A stretch of 56,371 bases of DNA from a virus (lineage: Duplodnaviria > Caudoviricetes), in IMG/VR virus record IMGVR_UViG_3300021376_000070, positions 1 to 56,371 of that record, one strand, 5' to 3'. The translations under genes were made by a program, and so were the position numbers. Positions 3,763 through 46,422 of this stretch are shown one piece after another. Positions within the stretch are counted from its first letter, which is position 1. Every line of letters starts with the position of its first letter. Under the pieces are notes generated by a model that had not been told where the DNA came from, did no database searches, and saw nothing but the letters and a program-made list of their open reading frames with translations.

Positions 3763-3771
3763 GGAGGCTTT

Positions 3772-4593
3772 ATGCAAATGAACAAACAACTGGGTCAGGC
3801 GCGATACGCTGATGACCTTGTCAATGTGCCGCAGGGCATGGGCATGACCCGCAACAATCTCCAGCGTCTGCTGCGCTCGCTGGACTTTGTCGGCTGGAGC
3901 AAGTCGGAAGAGTCCGGGCGATTGGACCGCCGCGCACTGACCAAGTTCGCCATCGGATCTGCCAATGTGTTCAGCCGCCGTCAGTATGTGGAGGCTGAGA
4001 CCTCGGCGGTCTCGGTCCTGATCGACTGCTCTGGGTCGATGAATGACGGCACCCCCGGGTCCAACATCAGCAAGATCACGGTCGCCCAGACCATCACGGT
4101 GCATTTGTCAAATCTGCTGCACAAGGCGCGAGTGCCCTTCACCGTGACGGGGTTTCGCTCTGGCAAGAATGAGTACCTGAATGAGTACCCAGAGGGCGGC
4201 GGTCGCGTCGAGTCTCCGCAATTTATCCCGTTCAAACCGTGGAGACAGTCGCTGCTGCGATCCATCCCTGCGCTTGGCAATATCAAGCAGTGCGCCTACT
4301 CAGGCACACCAGATTACTCTGCCATTGCCAATGCCATCGACGATCTGGCGCAGCGTCCTGAACACCGCCGCATCCTGTTCATCCTGACTGATGCCAACGG
4401 TTACATGAGGTCTCATATGCAGCACCTTCAAACCTTGGCAGACAAGGTCGGGGTCACCATCGTCGCCATCGGTATCAAGTCGCCTGATGTACTCGATTGC
4501 TTCGTAGATGCGGTCAACGTGGACAAGATCGAAGACCTCGGTGCCACCGCATTCAATCAACTGCTCAAGACTGTAAGGAGGAAGGTCGCATGA
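3772..4593 (+). CDS. von Willebrand factor A domain protein (CobT C-terminal-like)
   Basis: SGRLD, MIDAS DCSGS, GTP, ILTD, AIGI; SD GAGGAGG. Confidence 0.85.
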   Translation: MQMNKQLGQARYADDLVNVPQGMGMTRNNLQRLLRSLDFVGWSKSEESGRLDRRALTKFAIGSANVFSRRQYVEAETSAVSVLIDCSGSMNDGTPGSNISKITVAQTITVHLSNLLHKARVPFTVTGFRSGKNEYLNEYPEGGGRVESPQFIPFKPWRQSLLRSIPALGNIKQCAYSGTPDYSAIANAIDDLAQRPEHRRILFILTDANGYMRSHMQHLQTLADKVGVTIVAIGIKSPDVLDCFVDAVNVDKIEDLGATAFNQLLKTVRRKVA

Positions 4594-6022: not shown

Positions 6023-7708
6023 TCAAAAGGCATCGACTTGTTCGTTGTAGGTGCCGGTGACCTTGTCGTAGTTGAGCAAAACCTCTCCCTGCGTACCCAC
6101 CCAGCGGTATCTAGATTTCCAGACCGCTATCTCGACCCCGGTCTGCGCCCTGTGGACCGTCAGACCGCAATCGGCTTTTGCCCACCATGCCATCGATCCT
6201 GATATAGCCATGCCATCAGGACGGGGCAGATCGTTGCCAGATCGCTGGACTTTGGAGGGGTGAGCCACGAACCAGACATGAACCCCGAACGCCTTGGCGA
6301 AGGCTTGGACACGGGTCAGCATATCGCTGATTGCCCCGGTCTCTGAATCCCCCCGGTTCTTCATGTCGATGTAGTTATAGGGATCAATGACCATGCCCCT
6401 GATCCCCAGCCTTGCCACCGCCGCCTGTGCCCTGCTGAGAATGGAATCAATCGTGGCGGGTTCGACCGTCTCGGAGTCCATGAACAGGAAGTGATCGGTG
6501 ACCCATTTAAACGATGACTCCCTCTCCTCGTCGTTCATCCGGTGGGTGCCCTCGAAGAATCTTTTCTCGGCATAAATCTCCATGAACCTCGTGATATGCA
6601 CCTCGGGTTGATTCTCAAAAGAACAGACCGCAAACTTCCATTGGTGCTGTTTTGCAAGGTTGACCATCAACTGATCTACGAAGTTACTCTTGCCGTTGGA
6701 GGGGTATCCTGTGACTACGGTCAACTGCCCCGGAGCCACGGTGTAAATCTGGTCAAGGGATGTGTAGCCGGTTGAGACTCCCTTGCCTGTACCTTTGCTC
6801 CACAAGTCCTGCACCCTGTCCACGAACTTGGTGGCAGAGCTTAAACCCTCAACGGGGTAAGGCTCGGCGGCATCAATGATGGAGCGGACCTTCTCCACGC
6901 CATCAGCTATCAGCACCTCGTTTAAATCCTTTTTGTCGAACTTGGTAAGACGGCACTTGTGTTTGCCGATTCGCCTTGCCAACTCTTCTGCCAGAGCTTG
7001 ACCGGGTCCATCGTTGTCTGTGGCGATGACGATGTAGGGAGCTTTGGAGAGGGTCTCATGGGCATTCCAGACGAAGGAAAACTTCTTGTCCTCACTAGCA
7101 GTCACTTTGCCATTGACCACCTTCATGGGCGCACCAGAGGGAACCGAGACCACATTCTCAATCCCGCACTCGATGCCTGTGAGGGCATCGATCTCACCCT
7201 CAACAATGATGATGGGCTTGGCGGGGTCTACCTGATCAATGCCGAAGAAGTCATGGGCACCACCTGCGTCCTGCGTGAAGTCCTTGTCCTCGATGCAGCG
7301 GTACTTGGCGGCGGTCAGTGCCCCGCTGCGGTAGTAGGGAAAGCCAATAGCCGGGGCGCTCTTGCCAAGCCGTTGAAACCATTTATCTGCTGAGAAGAGC
7401 TTCATCTTGTCAGCGGTCTCCTTGCTGATGCCCCGCTTGATTAAGAACTCGTAGTGAGGCTGTTGCAGTGATGACTGCGTGATGGTGGGTTGAGGGACTG
7501 CCGACAATTTTCTCTCCATGCGTTTAAACGGAACGCTGCCACTGACTCCGCAATGATGGCAGTGGTACACCCACGCATCATCCCTGCGGGTGACGACCAG
7601 TTCTTTGAGATTGGATTTCCTGCGTTGCGGTGAGCAACTGGGACAAGCTACACGCTGCGTATCGTCAACGTGCAAAGCAGATACGAATGATTGAACCTCG
7701 TTCAACAC
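6023..7708 (-). CDS. T7 gp4/Twinkle-like primase-helicase
   Basis: Zn finger CPSC...CHHC; TOPRIM EGEID, DND, KDLNE; SF4 helicase GYPSNGKS, IDPYN, VAHP. Confidence 0.93.
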   Translation of the reverse strand: MLNEVQSFVSALHVDDTQRVACPSCSPQRRKSNLKELVVTRRDDAWVYHCHHCGVSGSVPFKRMERKLSAVPQPTITQSSLQQPHYEFLIKRGISKETADKMKLFSADKWFQRLGKSAPAIGFPYYRSGALTAAKYRCIEDKDFTQDAGGAHDFFGIDQVDPAKPIIIVEGEIDALTGIECGIENVVSVPSGAPMKVVNGKVTASEDKKFSFVWNAHETLSKAPYIVIATDNDGPGQALAEELARRIGKHKCRLTKFDKKDLNEVLIADGVEKVRSIIDAAEPYPVEGLSSATKFVDRVQDLWSKGTGKGVSTGYTSLDQIYTVAPGQLTVVTGYPSNGKSNFVDQLMVNLAKQHQWKFAVCSFENQPEVHITRFMEIYAEKRFFEGTHRMNDEERESSFKWVTDHFLFMDSETVEPATIDSILSRAQAAVARLGIRGMVIDPYNYIDMKNRGDSETGAISDMLTRVQAFAKAFGVHVWFVAHPSKVQRSGNDLPRPDGMAISGSMAWWAKADCGLTVHRAQTGVEIAVWKSRYRWVGTQGEVLLNYDKVTGTYNEQVDAF

Positions 7709-7727
7709 TGGTTAGCCTCCGGTGTAT

Positions 7728-8233: not shown

Positions 8234-8369
8234 GTTGCTGTGTGGAAAACAAAAAGCCGTTAAGTCTGACCCCGGTGGAAACGCAGTTCTTTTTTGGGGA
8301 ACTGGGCACCCCATTCGGGGTCGGAGTCAGGCTTAACGGCTTCTTGCATCGGTTTCCACGCCTAGCAAC
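8234..8369 (-). ncRNA. C4/CI-like structured antisense RNA with flanking target elements
   Basis: ~22-bp stem 8254-8275/8321-8342 closing two inner hairpins; outer complementary arms; duplicated GTGGAAA element. Confidence 0.55.
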
Positions 8370-8376
8370 GGAGCCA

Positions 8377-8406
8377 ATCCTACAGCAAGAAAAAAAACCT
8401 TGTCAA
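8377..8406 (-). promoter_or_regulatory. sigma70-type promoter toward the C4-like RNA and primase-helicase
   Basis: TTGACA-N18-TAGGAT. Confidence 0.65.
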
Positions 8407-8409
8407 GTG

Positions 8410-8474
8410 CAAAAAAAGGGGGTGGAGCAAACCACCCCCGCAATGGGCAACTGCACCAGAGACATCTCTGGGCA
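8410..8474 (-). ncRNA. putative small RNA ending in an intrinsic terminator
   Basis: TTGACG-N16-GAGAAT (8507-8480) upstream; GGGGGTGG-TTTGCT-CCACCCCC-T8 terminator. Confidence 0.45.
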
Positions 8475-8526
8475 AGATCATTCTCGCCCCCGCCCAACGG
8501 GCGTCAAGAGAACAAACACAGAACGC

Positions 8527-8555
8527 TTGACAAAACAATCTGGGTTGATCAAAAT
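8527..8555 (+). promoter_or_regulatory. sigma70-type promoter
   Basis: TTGACA-N17-CAAAAT. Confidence 0.55.
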
Positions 8556-8560
8556 CCAAG

Positions 8561-8650
8561 CACTCGTTCTTGATTAGCCTCCGGAAGAGACCGCACCTAT
8601 CGCTTTCGGTGCGGGGCAGATGGACCCTTACCCGGGTCCATTTGTTTTTC
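8561..8650 (+). ncRNA. putative trans-acting sRNA with anti-SD seed UUAGCCUCCGG
   Basis: Promoter, seed 8574-8584, hairpin CCGCACC/GGTGCGG, terminator ATGGACCC/GGGTCCAT plus T-rich tail. Confidence 0.55.
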
Positions 8651-8686
8651 TACGACTTCCGAATGAACCGCCGCGTGATCTGCGGG

Positions 8687-9088
8687 TCAGCGTTTAAACA
8701 CCGACTCAAGCTCTTCGACCCGGATCTCACACCTCGGGTTCTCTTTATCCAATCCCCAGTAGATGTGCTTCTCCTTGACCTGCCTGTCGTTCTCGTAGGC
8801 AACCCCCTGAAGTAAATCAAGGATCAGGCTCTCGTCCAGATCAGGACGGCGGCTGGCATACCAGATACGGATATGCACCACCACATCCCCCTCCAGCAAC
8901 TTGGATGCAGGCTTTGCTTGCAGTTTAAACGCAGAGACATAGGACAAAGCCTTCGATGATTTGATCAGTCTGGGTGCGCCTCCGATCAAGACCATCTTCC
9001 TGCTGTTTGCCTTGGAGGCTGGCTCCCCCAAGATTTTGAACACAAGTGCTTGCGGTGCGTTCGTGTTAGTGCTAACATGGCTCATCAT
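8687..9088 (-). CDS. rusA: RusA-like Holliday junction resolvase
   Basis: GEPASKANS...RPDLD...DLLQG...NDRQV...NPRCEIRV; exact start uncertain. Confidence 0.8.
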   Translation of the reverse strand: MMSHVSTNTNAPQALVFKILGEPASKANSRKMVLIGGAPRLIKSSKALSYVSAFKLQAKPASKLLEGDVVVHIRIWYASRRPDLDESLILDLLQGVAYENDRQVKEKHIYWGLDKENPRCEIRVEELESVFKR

Positions 9089-9115
9089 CGTTCTTTCACT
9101 CTATGGAGGCTACCA

Positions 9116-9979
9116 TTGAAGATCACAAACAAGCATAGCGTTCCCGAAACGCTTGTCGCTCTTGCAACCCGAGATTACTACAGCAAGGGCAGGGCTGACT
9201 ACAGCGTCACAGAAATCATTTCCCCTCCTCGCATCCAGCGTCTGCGCCGCCAGCACGCGGAGCAGATGGAGCAGGATGTTGCCGATATGCTCTGGCAGCT
9301 TCTGGGGTCTGCGCTTCATGTCGTGGCAGAGAGGGGGGTCGCCCCGGGTTATGTTACTGAGGAGCGCATCACCACCGAGATTGACGGGGTCAAGCTCTCC
9401 GGAGCCATCGACATCCAGAAGATCGATCCGGACGGGGTCACCATCACCGACTACAAGTTCACCTCTGCATGGGCGCTGCGGCAGGACAAGCCCGAATGGG
9501 AAGCCCAGCAGAACATCTACGCATGGCTGGTGGAGCGGGAGAAGAAGCAAAAGGTCAAGGGGGTGAAGATATGCGCCCTCATACGCGATTGGAGCCGCCG
9601 TGAGGCGTCTGTCAAGCCTGACTACCCCCAAGCCCCCATCCAAGTCATTGACCTGCCCCTGTGGGCTATGGACAAGACCGAGCAGTATGTCAGGCAAAGG
9701 ATCGAGTCTCATCGCGTGAGCAAGGTCCAAGCGGATTGGGGCGATGAACTACCGCCCTGCACAGACGATGAGCGGTGGGTGCGCGAGACGATTTATGCCG
9801 TCAAGCGCGAGGGCAGGAAGACCGCCATTCGAGTTTTCGACAACGAACAGCAAGCCAAGGAGTTGGCAGAGAAAGAGAAGGGCTATGTTGAAGTACGCCC
9901 GGGAGAAGCCATCCGCTGCACTGGCAACTTCTGCGGTGTGGCTCAGTGGTGCAGTCAATTTAAAGGAGAACAGGCATGA
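9116..9979 (+). CDS. PD-(D/E)XK nuclease (recombination exonuclease)
   Basis: SVTEII, GSALH, SGAID...DYK, QQNIY, C-terminal Cys cluster; TTG start after GGAGG. Confidence 0.8.
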   Translation: MKITNKHSVPETLVALATRDYYSKGRADYSVTEIISPPRIQRLRRQHAEQMEQDVADMLWQLLGSALHVVAERGVAPGYVTEERITTEIDGVKLSGAIDIQKIDPDGVTITDYKFTSAWALRQDKPEWEAQQNIYAWLVEREKKQKVKGVKICALIRDWSRREASVKPDYPQAPIQVIDLPLWAMDKTEQYVRQRIESHRVSKVQADWGDELPPCTDDERWVRETIYAVKREGRKTAIRVFDNEQQAKELAEKEKGYVEVRPGEAIRCTGNFCGVAQWCSQFKGEQA

Positions 9980-11575: not shown

Positions 11576-11912
11576 AACTGTCGTTCCTCTGATGATTTAT
11601 GTCTACCCGACCGAGGCAGAAAAGCTCAAGAAATTTGCCAAGAGAGCCAAGAAGACCGTCTCTCAGGTCGCCCGGGAAGGCATAGCCATGCGGATGAACA
11701 AGAAAGATCCCTACAACACGGGATTCGATGAAGGATTGAGGACCGCCATGAATGTGGCAGTCAAGACGGAGGGGGCGCAGATGCGCTTTCCTTCCGGTAA
11801 ATCTTTTGGGCAACTGGTGTGGGATGAGATCGAGAAGTTTAAACGCGAGATGCCAGATGATCCATCTGAGGTAGAAGCTCAACCGGAGGCTGAAGATGAC
11901 CGCCAACAATGA
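11562..11912 (+). CDS. ribbon-helix-helix-like DNA-binding protein
   Basis: PLMIYVY...EKLKKFAKRAKKTVSQVAREGI pattern; SD GGAG. Confidence 0.6.
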   Translation: MTRFKTVVPLMIYVYPTEAEKLKKFAKRAKKTVSQVAREGIAMRMNKKDPYNTGFDEGLRTAMNVAVKTEGAQMRFPSGKSFGQLVWDEIEKFKREMPDDPSEVEAQPEAEDDRQQ

Positions 11913-12156: not shown

Positions 12157-12966
12157 ATGACCATTAAGGACATTCTGGAGGCATATGGAAAGCATCTGGA
12201 GCAGACCATCACCCATGCTCGGGGGATGATTGCCATCCGCAATCTTTCCTCCCTGTATGGATGCACCGTCCGCAATGTGTCCAAACAGATCGAAAGGCAC
12301 ATCCAGACCCGCAAGGCATCCCCGGGAACCATCAACCGAGAGCTGACCGTGCTCCAAGCAGCCCTGAGATGGGCGTTTAAACGGGGTGATATTGACTTCC
12401 TGCCCGCCATCCCCCGGCTACCCTCCCCCCCTCCCCGGTCCCGGTTCCTGACCGAGGCGCAGGTCTCAATCCTGCTGGAGGCGGCAAAGCCCCACCCCCA
12501 TGTTCACACCTTCATCCGGATCGCCCTGATGACCGGACAAAGGAAGGAAGCCATCCTGTCCCTGACTTGGGATCAGGTGGACTTTGAGTCTGGGCTGGTG
12601 GACTTCAACGACCGCTCAGGAGCGTTTTTCCACCGCAGAAAGGGTCGAGGTATCGTCCCCATGTCAGATGCGCTCAGAAGCCTTTTAAAGGGCTTACAGG
12701 GGGATCATATGAATGTGATCCACCACAACGGTAAGCGGGTCAGGGATTTCAGGGTTATCTGGTCCAAGCTGATGAAGCAGACGGGACTGAACATCACCCC
12801 CCATGTGCTTCGGCATACCGTTGCCACCCAGCTTGCCCAGAAGAATGTGCCTATGCCCCAGATTTCCCGGCTCTTGGGGCACAGAAGCACCGTCATCACC
12901 GAGCGGGTCTATGCCAAGTTTTCACCAGAGTTCTGCCGGACGGCAGTCTCTTACCTTAATGTTTAA
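12157..12966 (+). CDS. tyrosine recombinase/integrase
   Basis: TGQRKEAI (R), HVLRHT, LLGH, YAK catalytic residues. Confidence 0.9.
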   Translation: MTIKDILEAYGKHLEQTITHARGMIAIRNLSSLYGCTVRNVSKQIERHIQTRKASPGTINRELTVLQAALRWAFKRGDIDFLPAIPRLPSPPPRSRFLTEAQVSILLEAAKPHPHVHTFIRIALMTGQRKEAILSLTWDQVDFESGLVDFNDRSGAFFHRRKGRGIVPMSDALRSLLKGLQGDHMNVIHHNGKRVRDFRVIWSKLMKQTGLNITPHVLRHTVATQLAQKNVPMPQISRLLGHRSTVITERVYAKFSPEFCRTAVSYLNV

Positions 12967-38535: not shown

Positions 38536-39618
38536 TCAGTTTGATGTTTTTATGACATTCCAATTTGTGGACGCCGAGGTATTGATCACAGACCAAGAGG
38601 TGCCGTTCTGAGCGTTGATGACATTCCAAGTCACAGATTGACTGTCATTGATGATCTCCCAAAGCAAACGAGCCAAGGGACTATCCGATGCTCTTGCAAG
38701 TTCTGCCACACTGACCGCATAAATTGGCAGAGTGGAGGGGGTATCAGCACCGGTTGCGCTCTCATCAATCAACGCCCCAAAGTCCACAGCACCGCTGATC
38801 AAATCGCTCACCACGGCAGACTCGTCAACACTGACGATAAAAACTACGCCGCCAGATGGGAAATCAGAGGCAGTAACAGACTCAGCAATGTTTGCCGGGA
38901 ATGCGAAGGACGAAGCAACTGTTTCTGATGCGATTGCGGTCTCGGATGCGGTAGCAACAAAAGTAGCGATTGCGGAGACCAACTCTGAAACGGTTGAAGA
39001 CTCAGTGATAAGACCACCGAAATCTACAGCGCCGCTGATTTGATCTGCGCCAGATGACGACTCAGAAACGCTGGAGCCAAAAGTTACGGCTCCAAATGCA
39101 GCATCTGATCCTGTCGCTTGCTCTGCGGTGATAGAGTTTAAGACAGTCCCGGCAGAGATGGAATCTGTTGCAGTTGCTGTCTCACTGACCGTTGAAACGA
39201 AGACCACGCGAGCCACAACCGTTTCAGATGCGGTTGCAGACTCAGCAATTAAAGGTGCAAAGGTTGCGCTGGCGCTGATCGTATCTGAGCCGGTGGCGCT
39301 TTCAGAAACACTTACGCCAAAATCAATTTTTGCTAAAACTGAATCTGCTGCGGTAGCCAGTTCAATGACAGACACCACATAGGTGACGCTGCCAGAGATG
39401 GAATCGGTTGCTGTTGCGGACTCGATAATCGTGCTTTGGAAAACGACCCTTGCGGAGATGGAGTCTGCCCCCGTCGCCGACTCATTGATTTGAACGGCGA
39501 ACTTAGCCAGTGCGCTCAGAATGTCTGAGGCATTAGCAGATTCTGCGACCGTAGCAACATAAACAGCACCAGAAAGCGATGAATATGGCGCGGTCGAATA
39601 TGGCAGCAGCCCGAGCAC
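38536..39618 (-). CDS. repetitive S/A/T-rich structural protein
   Basis: About 14 ESATAxD-type repeats at ~21-aa period. Confidence 0.6.
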   Translation of the reverse strand: MLGLLPYSTAPYSSLSGAVYVATVAESANASDILSALAKFAVQINESATGADSISARVVFQSTIIESATATDSISGSVTYVVSVIELATAADSVLAKIDFGVSVSESATGSDTISASATFAPLIAESATASETVVARVVFVSTVSETATATDSISAGTVLNSITAEQATGSDAAFGAVTFGSSVSESSSGADQISGAVDFGGLITESSTVSELVSAIATFVATASETAIASETVASSFAFPANIAESVTASDFPSGGVVFIVSVDESAVVSDLISGAVDFGALIDESATGADTPSTLPIYAVSVAELARASDSPLARLLWEIINDSQSVTWNVINAQNGTSWSVINTSASTNWNVIKTSN

Positions 39619-46098: not shown

Positions 46099-46410
46099 TC
46101 ACCCGTAGATCACCATGATGGATGCAACATCCGTTAGGTCAACATAGAGGTCAGTCTCAACCAAAATACCTTCTCCCGGTATTGAGAGAAAGAAAGTACC
46201 AGAAGCTGCCGCTGCTGGTGAGTTCATGGTCATCAAGATAGGACCGCTAGAGCCACCATCCCGAAAGACAACAGAACCAGCACTCGCACCTGAAACACCA
46301 TAGACAAACTTGATCCGACAACGAAGTAAATTGTTGTCGTTTTGATCTTTCATCTGCCCATCGGTCGTTCGCGGCTTGGACGCTAATACATCATATTGCA
46401 TGGAAGCCAT
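46099..46410 (-). CDS. virion structural protein
   Basis: SD GGAGG; IPGEGI motif; position in operon. Confidence 0.55.
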   Translation of the reverse strand: MASMQYDVLASKPRTTDGQMKDQNDNNLLRCRIKFVYGVSGASAGSVVFRDGGSSGPILMTMNSPAAAASGTFFLSIPGEGILVETDLYVDLTDVASIMVIYG

Positions 46411-46422
46411 GTCAGCCTCCTA

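Follow-up and report, generated by a model that had tools for sequence, protein, structure and literature searches.

A predicted phage small RNA whose loop changes together with a ribosome-site tag on replication and recombination genes

Masking of ribosome-binding sites by small RNAs is a familiar mechanism, and a few phage antisense RNAs are well known too; those in print act on one neighbouring message. The c4 antisense RNA of the phages P1 and P7 controls an antirepressor, the CI RNA of the satellite phage P4 controls replication. Both arise by processing of the leader of their target operon, and in c4-type RNAs the specificity types come from changes in the RNA that are matched by changes in the target. 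In plasmid copy control, pairing of the antisense RNA CopA with CopT is initiated at a hairpin loop and blocks translation of the replication protein. Staphylococcal RNAs of the RNAIII/RsaE type have C-rich loops directed against ribosome sites, and phage T4 possesses the RegB nuclease and the RegA repressor, which selectively shut down early messages at their ribosome-binding sites. Here we examined a candidate small RNA gene in the virus record IMGVR_UViG_3300021376_000070 (Caudoviricetes). The entire record of 56,371 bp was analyzed and is called the window below. The gene is located at 8527-8650 on the plus strand. Its predicted RNA carries a seed, UUAGCCUCCGG (TTAGCCTCCGG in DNA letters; 8574-8584), which is the exact complement of the Shine-Dalgarno region of a primase-helicase gene (CCGGAGGCTAA, 7712-7722, minus strand). 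Similar extended ribosome-site sequences, here termed tags, precede further genes, mostly of replication and recombination. Because the loop varies jointly with the tag among the phages, the small RNA very probably binds the tagged messages to control their translation.

Two groups of described sequences share features with this locus. Start-associated sequences (SAS) of cluster K mycobacteriophages are conserved asymmetric motifs which overlap the ribosome-binding site and reach beyond the pairing with 16S ribosomal RNA; according to the sections concerned they are positioned a few nucleotides before the start codon, at non-structural genes only (PMC3203893). Passages on SAS describe the role as 'not known' in 2024 and as something that 'requires further experimental verification' in 2025 (PMC11373665, PMC12699233). 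The cuckoo or alpha-r14 RNAs (CcsR, NfeR1) are reported as chromosomal RNAs with a generic motif, CCUCCUCCC, in two to four adjacent hairpin loops (PMC4615179). In the literature searches made, no printed description of a layout of private ribosome-site tags with a matching phage small RNA came up. Among the RNAs treated in the relevant parts of a 2025 review of phage small RNAs, i.e. VpdS, PreS, 24B_1, PAK_P4as15, sar, OOP and aQ, none is presented with a regulon of private tags (PMC12197685).

Joint variation and joint loss of seed and tag

The intergenic stretch had no match in the phage collection, and the primase was at most 33% identical to those of named phages. In IMG/VR, 176 primase relatives were confirmed and 80 loci were kept (L001 and following numbers). 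Seeds were aligned on the G of GCC, primase start regions on the C after the G-run. This resulted in 35 distinct seed/target combinations from 55 loci. Positions -2, -1 and 0 to +4 were paired in all 35, and the identity of the pairs differed. At position -2 we found A-U in 20 combinations, U-A in 11 and G-C in 4; at position -1 A-U in 34 and G-C in one; at position +3 U-A in 30, C-G in 4 and U-G in one. Further out, pairing was present at -3 in 33, at +5 in 30, at -5 in 27, at +6 in 26 and at +7 in 25 combinations. Of the cells in the variable flanks, 243/350 were paired compared to 203 ± 8 with permuted targets (0/5000), and a seed formed 10.7 contiguous pairs with its own target compared to 7.95 after permutation (0/20000); both permutation tests ignore relatedness. 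Matched partners are UUAGCCUCCGG with CCGGAGGCUAA in the window, GAUUAGCCUCCGA with UCGGAGGCUAAUC in L002, UUGGCCUCCG with CGGAGGCCAA in L006, AAUUAAGCCUCCUG with CAGGAGGCUUAAUU in L018, AAAUGAGCCUCC with GGAGGCUCAUUU in L032 and UUAAGCCCC with GGGGCUUAA in L019. Among close relatives the tag is extended by GGCUAA, GGCUUAA, GGCCAA, GGCUCA or GGGGCUUAA.

The changes were then counted on a primase tree of 81 rows obtained by a quick search. At position -2 there were five seed changes and five target changes, yet only five changes of the joint state, i.e. five coincident double changes. Position -1 showed one seed, one target and one joint change, position +3 one seed, two target and two joint changes. 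All 55 loci were paired at these three positions. Paired contrasts pointed in the same direction in 3/3, 2/2 and 3/3 cases; because the independent events are too few, such contrasts cannot reach P < 0.05. L006, whose primase is 84% identical to that of the window, has its own seed/tag type. Covariation in related phages had been proposed as a check in the preliminary description of the locus; seed and tag indeed switch together. This co-evolution is shown by comparison of the sequences.

Presence and absence followed the same rule. In the 70 rows which could be judged, 55 had both RNA and tag, 15 had neither and none was discordant, with three tree changes for each character. In 11 further loci the upstream sequence was too short; six of them had the tag and five did not. 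The loci without a small RNA near the primase and without a primase tag belong to one clade of L039, L040, L045, L051, L052, L056, L061, L063 and L078 and a second one of L055, L059, L066, L073 and L074; L021 is a further case. This suggests that the whole RNA-tag system can be lost or replaced.

Tags at start sites were counted in 35 representative loci. Genomes with a type I seed had 27 type I tags, one of type IV and none of types II and III. With type II seeds, 64 tags were of type II, 18 of type I, 6 of type IV and none of type III. The one locus with a type III seed had two type III tags and no others, and type IV seeds were accompanied by 8 tags of type IV, two of type I, one of type II and none of type III. 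Thus, the tag type that matches the genome's own seed dominates, although imperfectly. Orthologues of the AAA+ ATPase and of the PD-(D/E)XK nuclease, which are tagged in the window, as well as small genes, have tags of their genome's own type in the relatives. In L006 both tagged starts read GGAGGCCAA. Four near-complete relatives had 4-5 copies of their own tag each, compared to 0-1 for a reversed control, and all copies except one were located within 8-12 kb around the primase.

The small RNA gene and the tagged genes of the window

The small RNA locus lies in a 372-nucleotide (nt) gap between RusA (8687-9088, minus strand) and a leftward operon of small genes. A promoter scan identified a sigma-70-like promoter at 8527-8555 (plus strand) with 10/12 consensus matches, consisting of the -35 hexamer TTGACA (8527-8532), a 17-nt spacer and the -10 hexamer CAAAAT (8550-8555). 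The predicted RNA of about 89 nt (8562-8650) would start some 7 nt past the -10 hexamer and end with a U-tract. Its predicted fold has three hairpins. Hairpin 1 (8563-8589) presents a 6-nt loop, UUAGCC (8574-8579); the seed consists of this loop and the 3' arm. Hairpin 2 spans 8591-8614. Hairpin 3 (8615-8649) has a core stem of 8620-8627 with 8634-8641, directly followed by the U-tract TTGTTTTT (8642-8649), and from sequence and fold is a putative intrinsic terminator. The folding energy of the 89-nt RNA was -39.5 kcal/mol (z = -4.46), and none of 200 shuffled sequences was equally stable. The preliminary description had recognized a promoter-to-terminator unit of about 90 nt, and promoter, fold and conservation bear it out. 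It had placed the seed ahead of two hairpins. Since the predicted fold puts the seed into the loop and the 3' arm of hairpin 1, this part of the anatomy has to be revised.

Alignment of the unit with L002 required gaps of 8, 2 and 1 nt, and open reading frames (ORFs) overlapping it matched no PHROG family. Therefore, we consider the unit to be non-coding. A search of the whole window with Rfam at the gathering threshold yielded no family; with 8300-8720 and E-values up to 10 six weak matches at chance level were obtained, none to the C4 antisense RNA. The 24 listed sequencing runs that hold DNA of the window are DNA runs from lake, freshwater or wastewater metagenomes, with no RNA sequencing run among them.

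The gap which contains the small RNA is 87% identical in the relative L001. In L002, L003 and L007 only promoter and seed were aligned by BLAST; the layout is the same with different hairpin sequences. A first covariance model from five sequences (R1) gave 44 matches at E-values up to 1. A second one (R2) was built from 31 non-identical hits and used to search 81 sources and four other loci. It had one hit on the syntenic strand in 54/81 sources; besides, there were three weak hits on the opposite strand. With either model, the 8562-8650 unit was the single hit within the window. An additional homologue in L022 was recognized by inspection. In every case the unit was encoded on the opposite strand and lay upstream of the primase start by 559-1540 nt.

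In the structure alignment of 31 sequences 92.4% of the cells were paired compared to 64.7% in shuffled alignments (0/500 reached the observed value) and at most 55.9% in slid registers, and 22/27 pairs changed on both sides (8/9 in helix 1, 4/5 in helix 2, 10/13 in helix 3; 87.8% of cells paired in helix 1 and 97.4% in helix 3), counts which favor the structure because the alignment was fitted to the model. Of 1148 cells, 129 were G-U and 28 A-C, which favors the plus strand as the RNA. Among 43 distinct upstream regions of relatives, the -35 hexamer was exactly TTGACA in 28, a promoter with at least 9/12 matches was present in 37, the best-scoring -10 hexamer ended 20-25 nt before the G of GCC in 37, and a run of at least four T followed downstream in all 43. 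Because of the G-U excess, the conserved promoter and the T-run the plus strand was taken as the RNA strand. At the level of sequence, these data confirmed that 8527-8650 is a stand-alone promoter-to-terminator small RNA gene which is conserved, structured and non-coding. Primase relatives were also present on two short binned contigs, L082 and L083, from bins labelled beta proteobacterium and Burkholderiaceae; L082, from the former, carries the small RNA as well. This is a weak hint at the host, perhaps a member of the Burkholderiaceae.

The replication and recombination module of the window covers about 1-13.7 kb; there is also a long leftward block of structural genes. Tags were found in front of six genes, and Pfam agreed with the names of the tagged genes. 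The primase-helicase (561 amino acids, 6023-7708, minus strand; Pfam) is the last gene of the leftward operon. Its tag, the exact seed complement mentioned above, is located 7 nt before the GTG at 7708 and has a calculated duplex energy with the seed region of -22.7 kcal/mol. On the plus strand the AAA+ (MoxR/CbbQ-like) ATPase has CGGAGGCTAA (1291-1300) before the ATG at 1304 (-18.9 kcal/mol), the DUF3310 gene CCGGAGGCTGA (11883-11893) before the ATG at 11896 (-21.9 kcal/mol, with one G-U pair) and the PD-(D/E)XK nuclease TGGAGGCTA (9104-9112) before the TTG at 9116 (-16.9 kcal/mol). A gene of 103 amino acids on the minus strand, for which neither Pfam nor PHROG gave a family match, has GGAGGCTGA (46412-46420) before the ATG at 46410 (-18.3 kcal/mol). 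A short tag, GGAGGCT (3763-3769, plus strand), stands before the ATG at 3772 of a CobT-like gene with weak PHROG matches (-13.9 kcal/mol); this is the weakest candidate target. The consensus of the window tags is (C)CGGAGGCU(A/G)A.

In six of the eight genes with a GGAGG start site this core continues with CT (starts at 1304, 3772, 7708, 9116, 11896 and 46410), compared to 10/105 of other GGAGG sites (binomial P = 1.8e-5). For a second exact copy of one 11-mer the expectation is 0.027. Late structural genes, e.g. those starting at 39618, 39807, 40401, 48626 and 49948, use ribosome sites of the TAAGGAG type. The duplex energies with the seed region were -13.9 to -22.7 kcal/mol for the six tagged starts versus -6.2 to -9.9 kcal/mol for five late starts of the TAAGGAG type. 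With the 16S tail as a yardstick tagged and late starts were alike (-8.5 to -12.2 kcal/mol). When the first 30 nt of the RNA were compared with 63 start regions, the primase ranked first and the AAA+ ATPase, DUF3310, nuclease and 46410 genes took ranks 3-6. Hence all five targets named in the preliminary description, with their complements at the positions given there, were recovered near the top of the ranking which it had suggested, and its assertion that the match goes beyond a generic GGAGG was substantiated by the CT continuation and by the relatives, in which the extension tracks the phage RNA. Two ribosome-site classes exist in one phage, GGAGGCU(A/G)A in the replication module and the TAAGGAG type in late genes. 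Therefore, the GGAGGCU(A/G)A class does not represent extended pairing with 16S.

Some neighboring elements deserve mention. A gap of 27 nt separates the divergent genes of RusA and the PD-(D/E)XK nuclease. A RusA leader that started upstream of 9113 (minus strand) would hold the complement of the nuclease tag (9105-9113, minus strand), i.e. a second anti-tag sequence. A second small unit (8412-8507, minus strand) is transcribed away from the first one. Its promoter-like site (8507..8480) consists of TTGACG and GAGAAT with 16 nt between them; then follow a variable hairpin, the single-stranded and conserved GCAGTTGCC(C)AT and a terminator at 8439..8418 with seven T. This unit is conserved in L001, L002, L007, L004 and L008 and is not found in L006 or L012; no site complementary to it was present within the window. 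The palindrome GTTTAAAC is part of the loop of its terminator hairpin in L002, L007, L004 and L008; in the window the same palindrome is located at 8692, just past the small RNA terminator. The leader of the primase operon (8234-8406, minus strand) has a promoter-like site at 8406..8377 and a 60-codon ORF without a family match.

Proposed mode of action and rival readings

We consider it likely that the 8562-8650 transcript is a trans-acting small RNA which covers the ribosome sites of replication-module genes, with translational repression as the most probable outcome. Host RNA polymerase would read the RNA from the sigma-70-type promoter and the intrinsic terminator would end the transcript. 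Hairpin 1 would display UUAGCC in an open 6-nt loop, which may nucleate on GGCUAA just 3' of the GGAGG core in a tagged message. From there, pairing would proceed into the weak 3' arm (UCCGG), so that 9-13 bp cover the ribosome-binding site; the duplex extends to the start codon in several relatives. At -17 to -23 kcal/mol versus about 4 kcal/mol for opening, the RNA should outcompete the 16S tail on tagged and not on late messages. A duplex over the ribosome-binding site is described as the classical block of initiation in the passages on this mechanism (PMC4615179). The consequence would be a selective block of 30S binding, i.e. repressed translation, perhaps followed by messenger RNA decay. 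The primase-helicase would be the first target, followed by the AAA+ ATPase, the PD-(D/E)XK nuclease, DUF3310, the 46410 gene and perhaps the gene at 3772. In this way the replication module might be turned down as the RNA accumulates, or be kept silent in a lysogen. The earlier interpretation as a small RNA against replication and recombination genes thus keeps its core, a conserved gene with a seed tied to the tags by covariation and joint loss, with a modified anatomy in which the seed is inside the first of three hairpins.

Several observations weigh against this reading, in addition to the limits given above for the permutation tests, the paired contrasts and the structure counts. Pairing fades outside of positions -5 to +7 (18/35 at -4, 13/35 at +8). 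In type II genomes 24/88 start-site tags are of other types, and in L062 and L069 the nuclease gene has another tag type. The seed 11-mer with up to two mismatches is not enriched in the window (10 matches versus 11.4 ± 3.1 in shuffled sequences). A seed buried in structure had been named beforehand as an argument against pairing; the cost of opening is 0.01 kcal/mol for the loop of hairpin 1 and 3.98 kcal/mol for the whole seed, so the loop is open, yet 5/11 seed bases are paired inside hairpin 1. The hairpin 3 terminator was absent from the list of a consensus terminator scan, and 6/43 upstream regions of relatives have no good promoter at the usual place. The evidence is comparative throughout, and repression is assumed because the duplex sits on the ribosome-binding site. 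Finally, in terms of DNA the primase strand carries the seed region as a direct repeat of the tag, and another reading of such a repeat is conceivable.

A reading that retains both RNA and pairing concerns the biological role. The RNA may serve immunity or replication control in the lysogen and not as a lytic timer. A prophage RNA would keep its own replication module and incoming ones with the same tag untranslated, and the seed/tag types would be immunity specificities which diversify against cross-immunity, similar to the c4 RNA of P1 and P7. An integrase-like gene at 12157-12966 (phrog_1, E = 4e-49), a replication protein as the main target and an ordinary host-type promoter would suit such a role, as would the joint type switches, at least five among close relatives and including L006. 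However, the two contigs from host genomes which contain relatives are short binned pieces, and drift followed by compensation could explain the diversification as well. A role in the lysogen is therefore possible, and we regard it as the less probable use of the RNA.

Next, the direction of the effect was considered. The small RNA could activate translation or protect messages by opening a hairpin at the primase start, or it could mainly hit host messages via CCUCC. Folding of the primase start region in the window clade does give a hairpin whose stem contains the start codon and whose loop contains AGGCUAA; the GGCnnn nucleotides are unpaired there with a probability of 0.79-1.0. But the ribosome-binding site is what the small RNA occupies in the duplex, and the target hairpin, at -4 to -7 kcal/mol, is weak and most clades lack it. 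A CCUCC core would match any GGAGG site, including those of the host; against this, the covariation shows selection on the phage's own tags. We consider activation and host targeting unlikely. Two additional contacts were evaluated and not retained. A family-wide kissing-loop hairpin in the target was given up since most other clades have a weak one or none; it is conceivable for single clades only. Primase codons 2-4 of the window are complementary to CUCGUUC in the 5' arm of hairpin 1. As a second pairing block this was rejected: own matches of at least 6 nt occurred in 7/42 distinct combinations compared to 13% of 1722 non-own pairs, those of at least 7 nt in 4/42 compared to 3.2%, not clearly above background.

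The direct repeat permits the view that the functional copy is the motif on the minus strand (8584..8574), a further tag which serves as a decoy or is bound by a phage protein or by the ribosome. The motif would then belong to the 3' untranslated region of RusA or act as DNA, the tags would co-evolve with a protein and the plus-strand transcript would be incidental. On the minus strand there is no U-run terminator for RusA ahead of the motif, and in L062, L069 and L080 an ATG follows at a proper distance and opens ORFs of 41-52 codons. A small ORF behind the motif was, however, discarded as a general explanation: in the window and in most relatives neither a start codon nor an ORF of at least 40 codons follows. 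Moreover, promoter, T-run and the preponderance of G-U over A-C cells reside with the plus strand, and the complement is fixed in a co-varying hairpin loop, with the G of GCC 20-25 nt past the -10 hexamer in 37/43 relatives, which a protein-site model does not predict. This makes a functional minus-strand copy slightly more improbable still than activation. A chance or generic match, in which C-rich intergenic hairpins complement GGAGG and GGAGGCT mirrors the 16S tail of the host, a caveat of the preliminary description, is very improbable in spite of the generic GGAGG core and of the chance-level count of near matches, because the extension changes between close relatives, in each case in step with the phage RNA, the late genes have sites of the TAAGGAG type in the same phage, the CT continuation is concentrated at gene starts, and RNA and tag are lost together.

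Comparison with described systems

By its layout the candidate, a trans-acting RNA that masks ribosome sites, would fit into the general class of trans-encoded RNAs which occlude ribosome sites: a promoter of its own and an apparent intrinsic terminator enclose a short non-coding unit, and an accessible seed is kept by compensatory change. Within this class the cuckoo-type RNAs have similar C/U-rich loops against ribosome sites, stems which vary by compensation while the loop is kept, and a proposed occlusion of the ribosome site, as portrayed in the sections devoted to them (PMC4615179). The RNA of the window is not a member of the cuckoo/alpha-r14 group. Only hairpin 1, with the loop UUAGCC, has a CCUCC-containing motif, and hairpins 2 and 3 have unrelated loops. 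Unlike in the cuckoo-type RNAs, a single loop bears an extension that is specific to the lineage and corresponds to a private tag of the phage's own genes, and Rfam gave no match. The betaproteobacterial double-hairpin 'toxic' RNA was absent among the Rfam matches as well, so an assignment to that family is not indicated. CopA/CopT is cis-encoded, fully complementary and has a single target, whereas the candidate described here is trans-encoded with a short seed and several predicted targets. Unlike the T4 proteins RegB and RegA, specificity would be held by an RNA and a sequence tag. This would give a phage class-specific translation control without a protein regulator.

The likeness to SAS is one of layout only. 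The window tag does not conform to the 13-nt SAS consensus of Pope et al., and the hosts differ. Unlike with SAS, a complementary phage RNA was identified here by covariation. In the cluster K phage Anaya (L081 29871-29883, corresponding to 59870-59882 of the record) a single reverse SAS copy is located on the transcribed strand of a 385-nt gene gap. The predicted fold (z = -4.3) places it in a hairpin loop of 10 nt; conservation of the gap extends to 182 cluster K records. In Bryler the SAS consensus is kept (12 exact copies) and the homologous loop differs; Pixie has no hairpin in the alignment. Because the Bryler loop differs while SAS is kept, and because no covariation was found, an anti-SAS RNA in cluster K is a lead only. 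Start-codon tag motifs such as SAS have been without a known partner since 2011, and the arrangement reported here offers a testable idea for them.

In the window, dispersed replication and recombination genes apparently share a private Shine-Dalgarno extension which is read by one small RNA. Tentatively, such private tags together with a matching phage small RNA might be a general, as yet unprinted way to address one class of genes. If so, the seed/tag types would be interchangeable specificity codes which diversify to evade the cross-regulation exerted by related phages or prophages, a kind of RNA immunity, and the same logic might account for tag motifs without an assigned function in other phages, e.g. 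the SAS of cluster K. Annotators may look for this signature in uncultured phages.

By mode of action the nearest printed systems appear to be the c4 RNA of P1/P7 and the CI RNA of P4. As there, a small structured phage RNA would have exposed stretches that pair with genes of the same phage in the region of their ribosome sites; the complementarity comprises 9-13 nt and is accompanied by covariation. The likeness does not include descent from a leader, as the candidate has a conserved promoter of its own on the strand opposite to the primase operon, nor a match to the Rfam C4 covariance model. Unlike with c4 and CI, the predicted targets are several, dispersed on both strands and marked by a private tag, and the seed extends over the Shine-Dalgarno core. 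That seed and tag have switched together repeatedly is unusually clear comparative evidence for a contact between two RNAs, and it hints at specificity types as they exist in RNA-based immunity.

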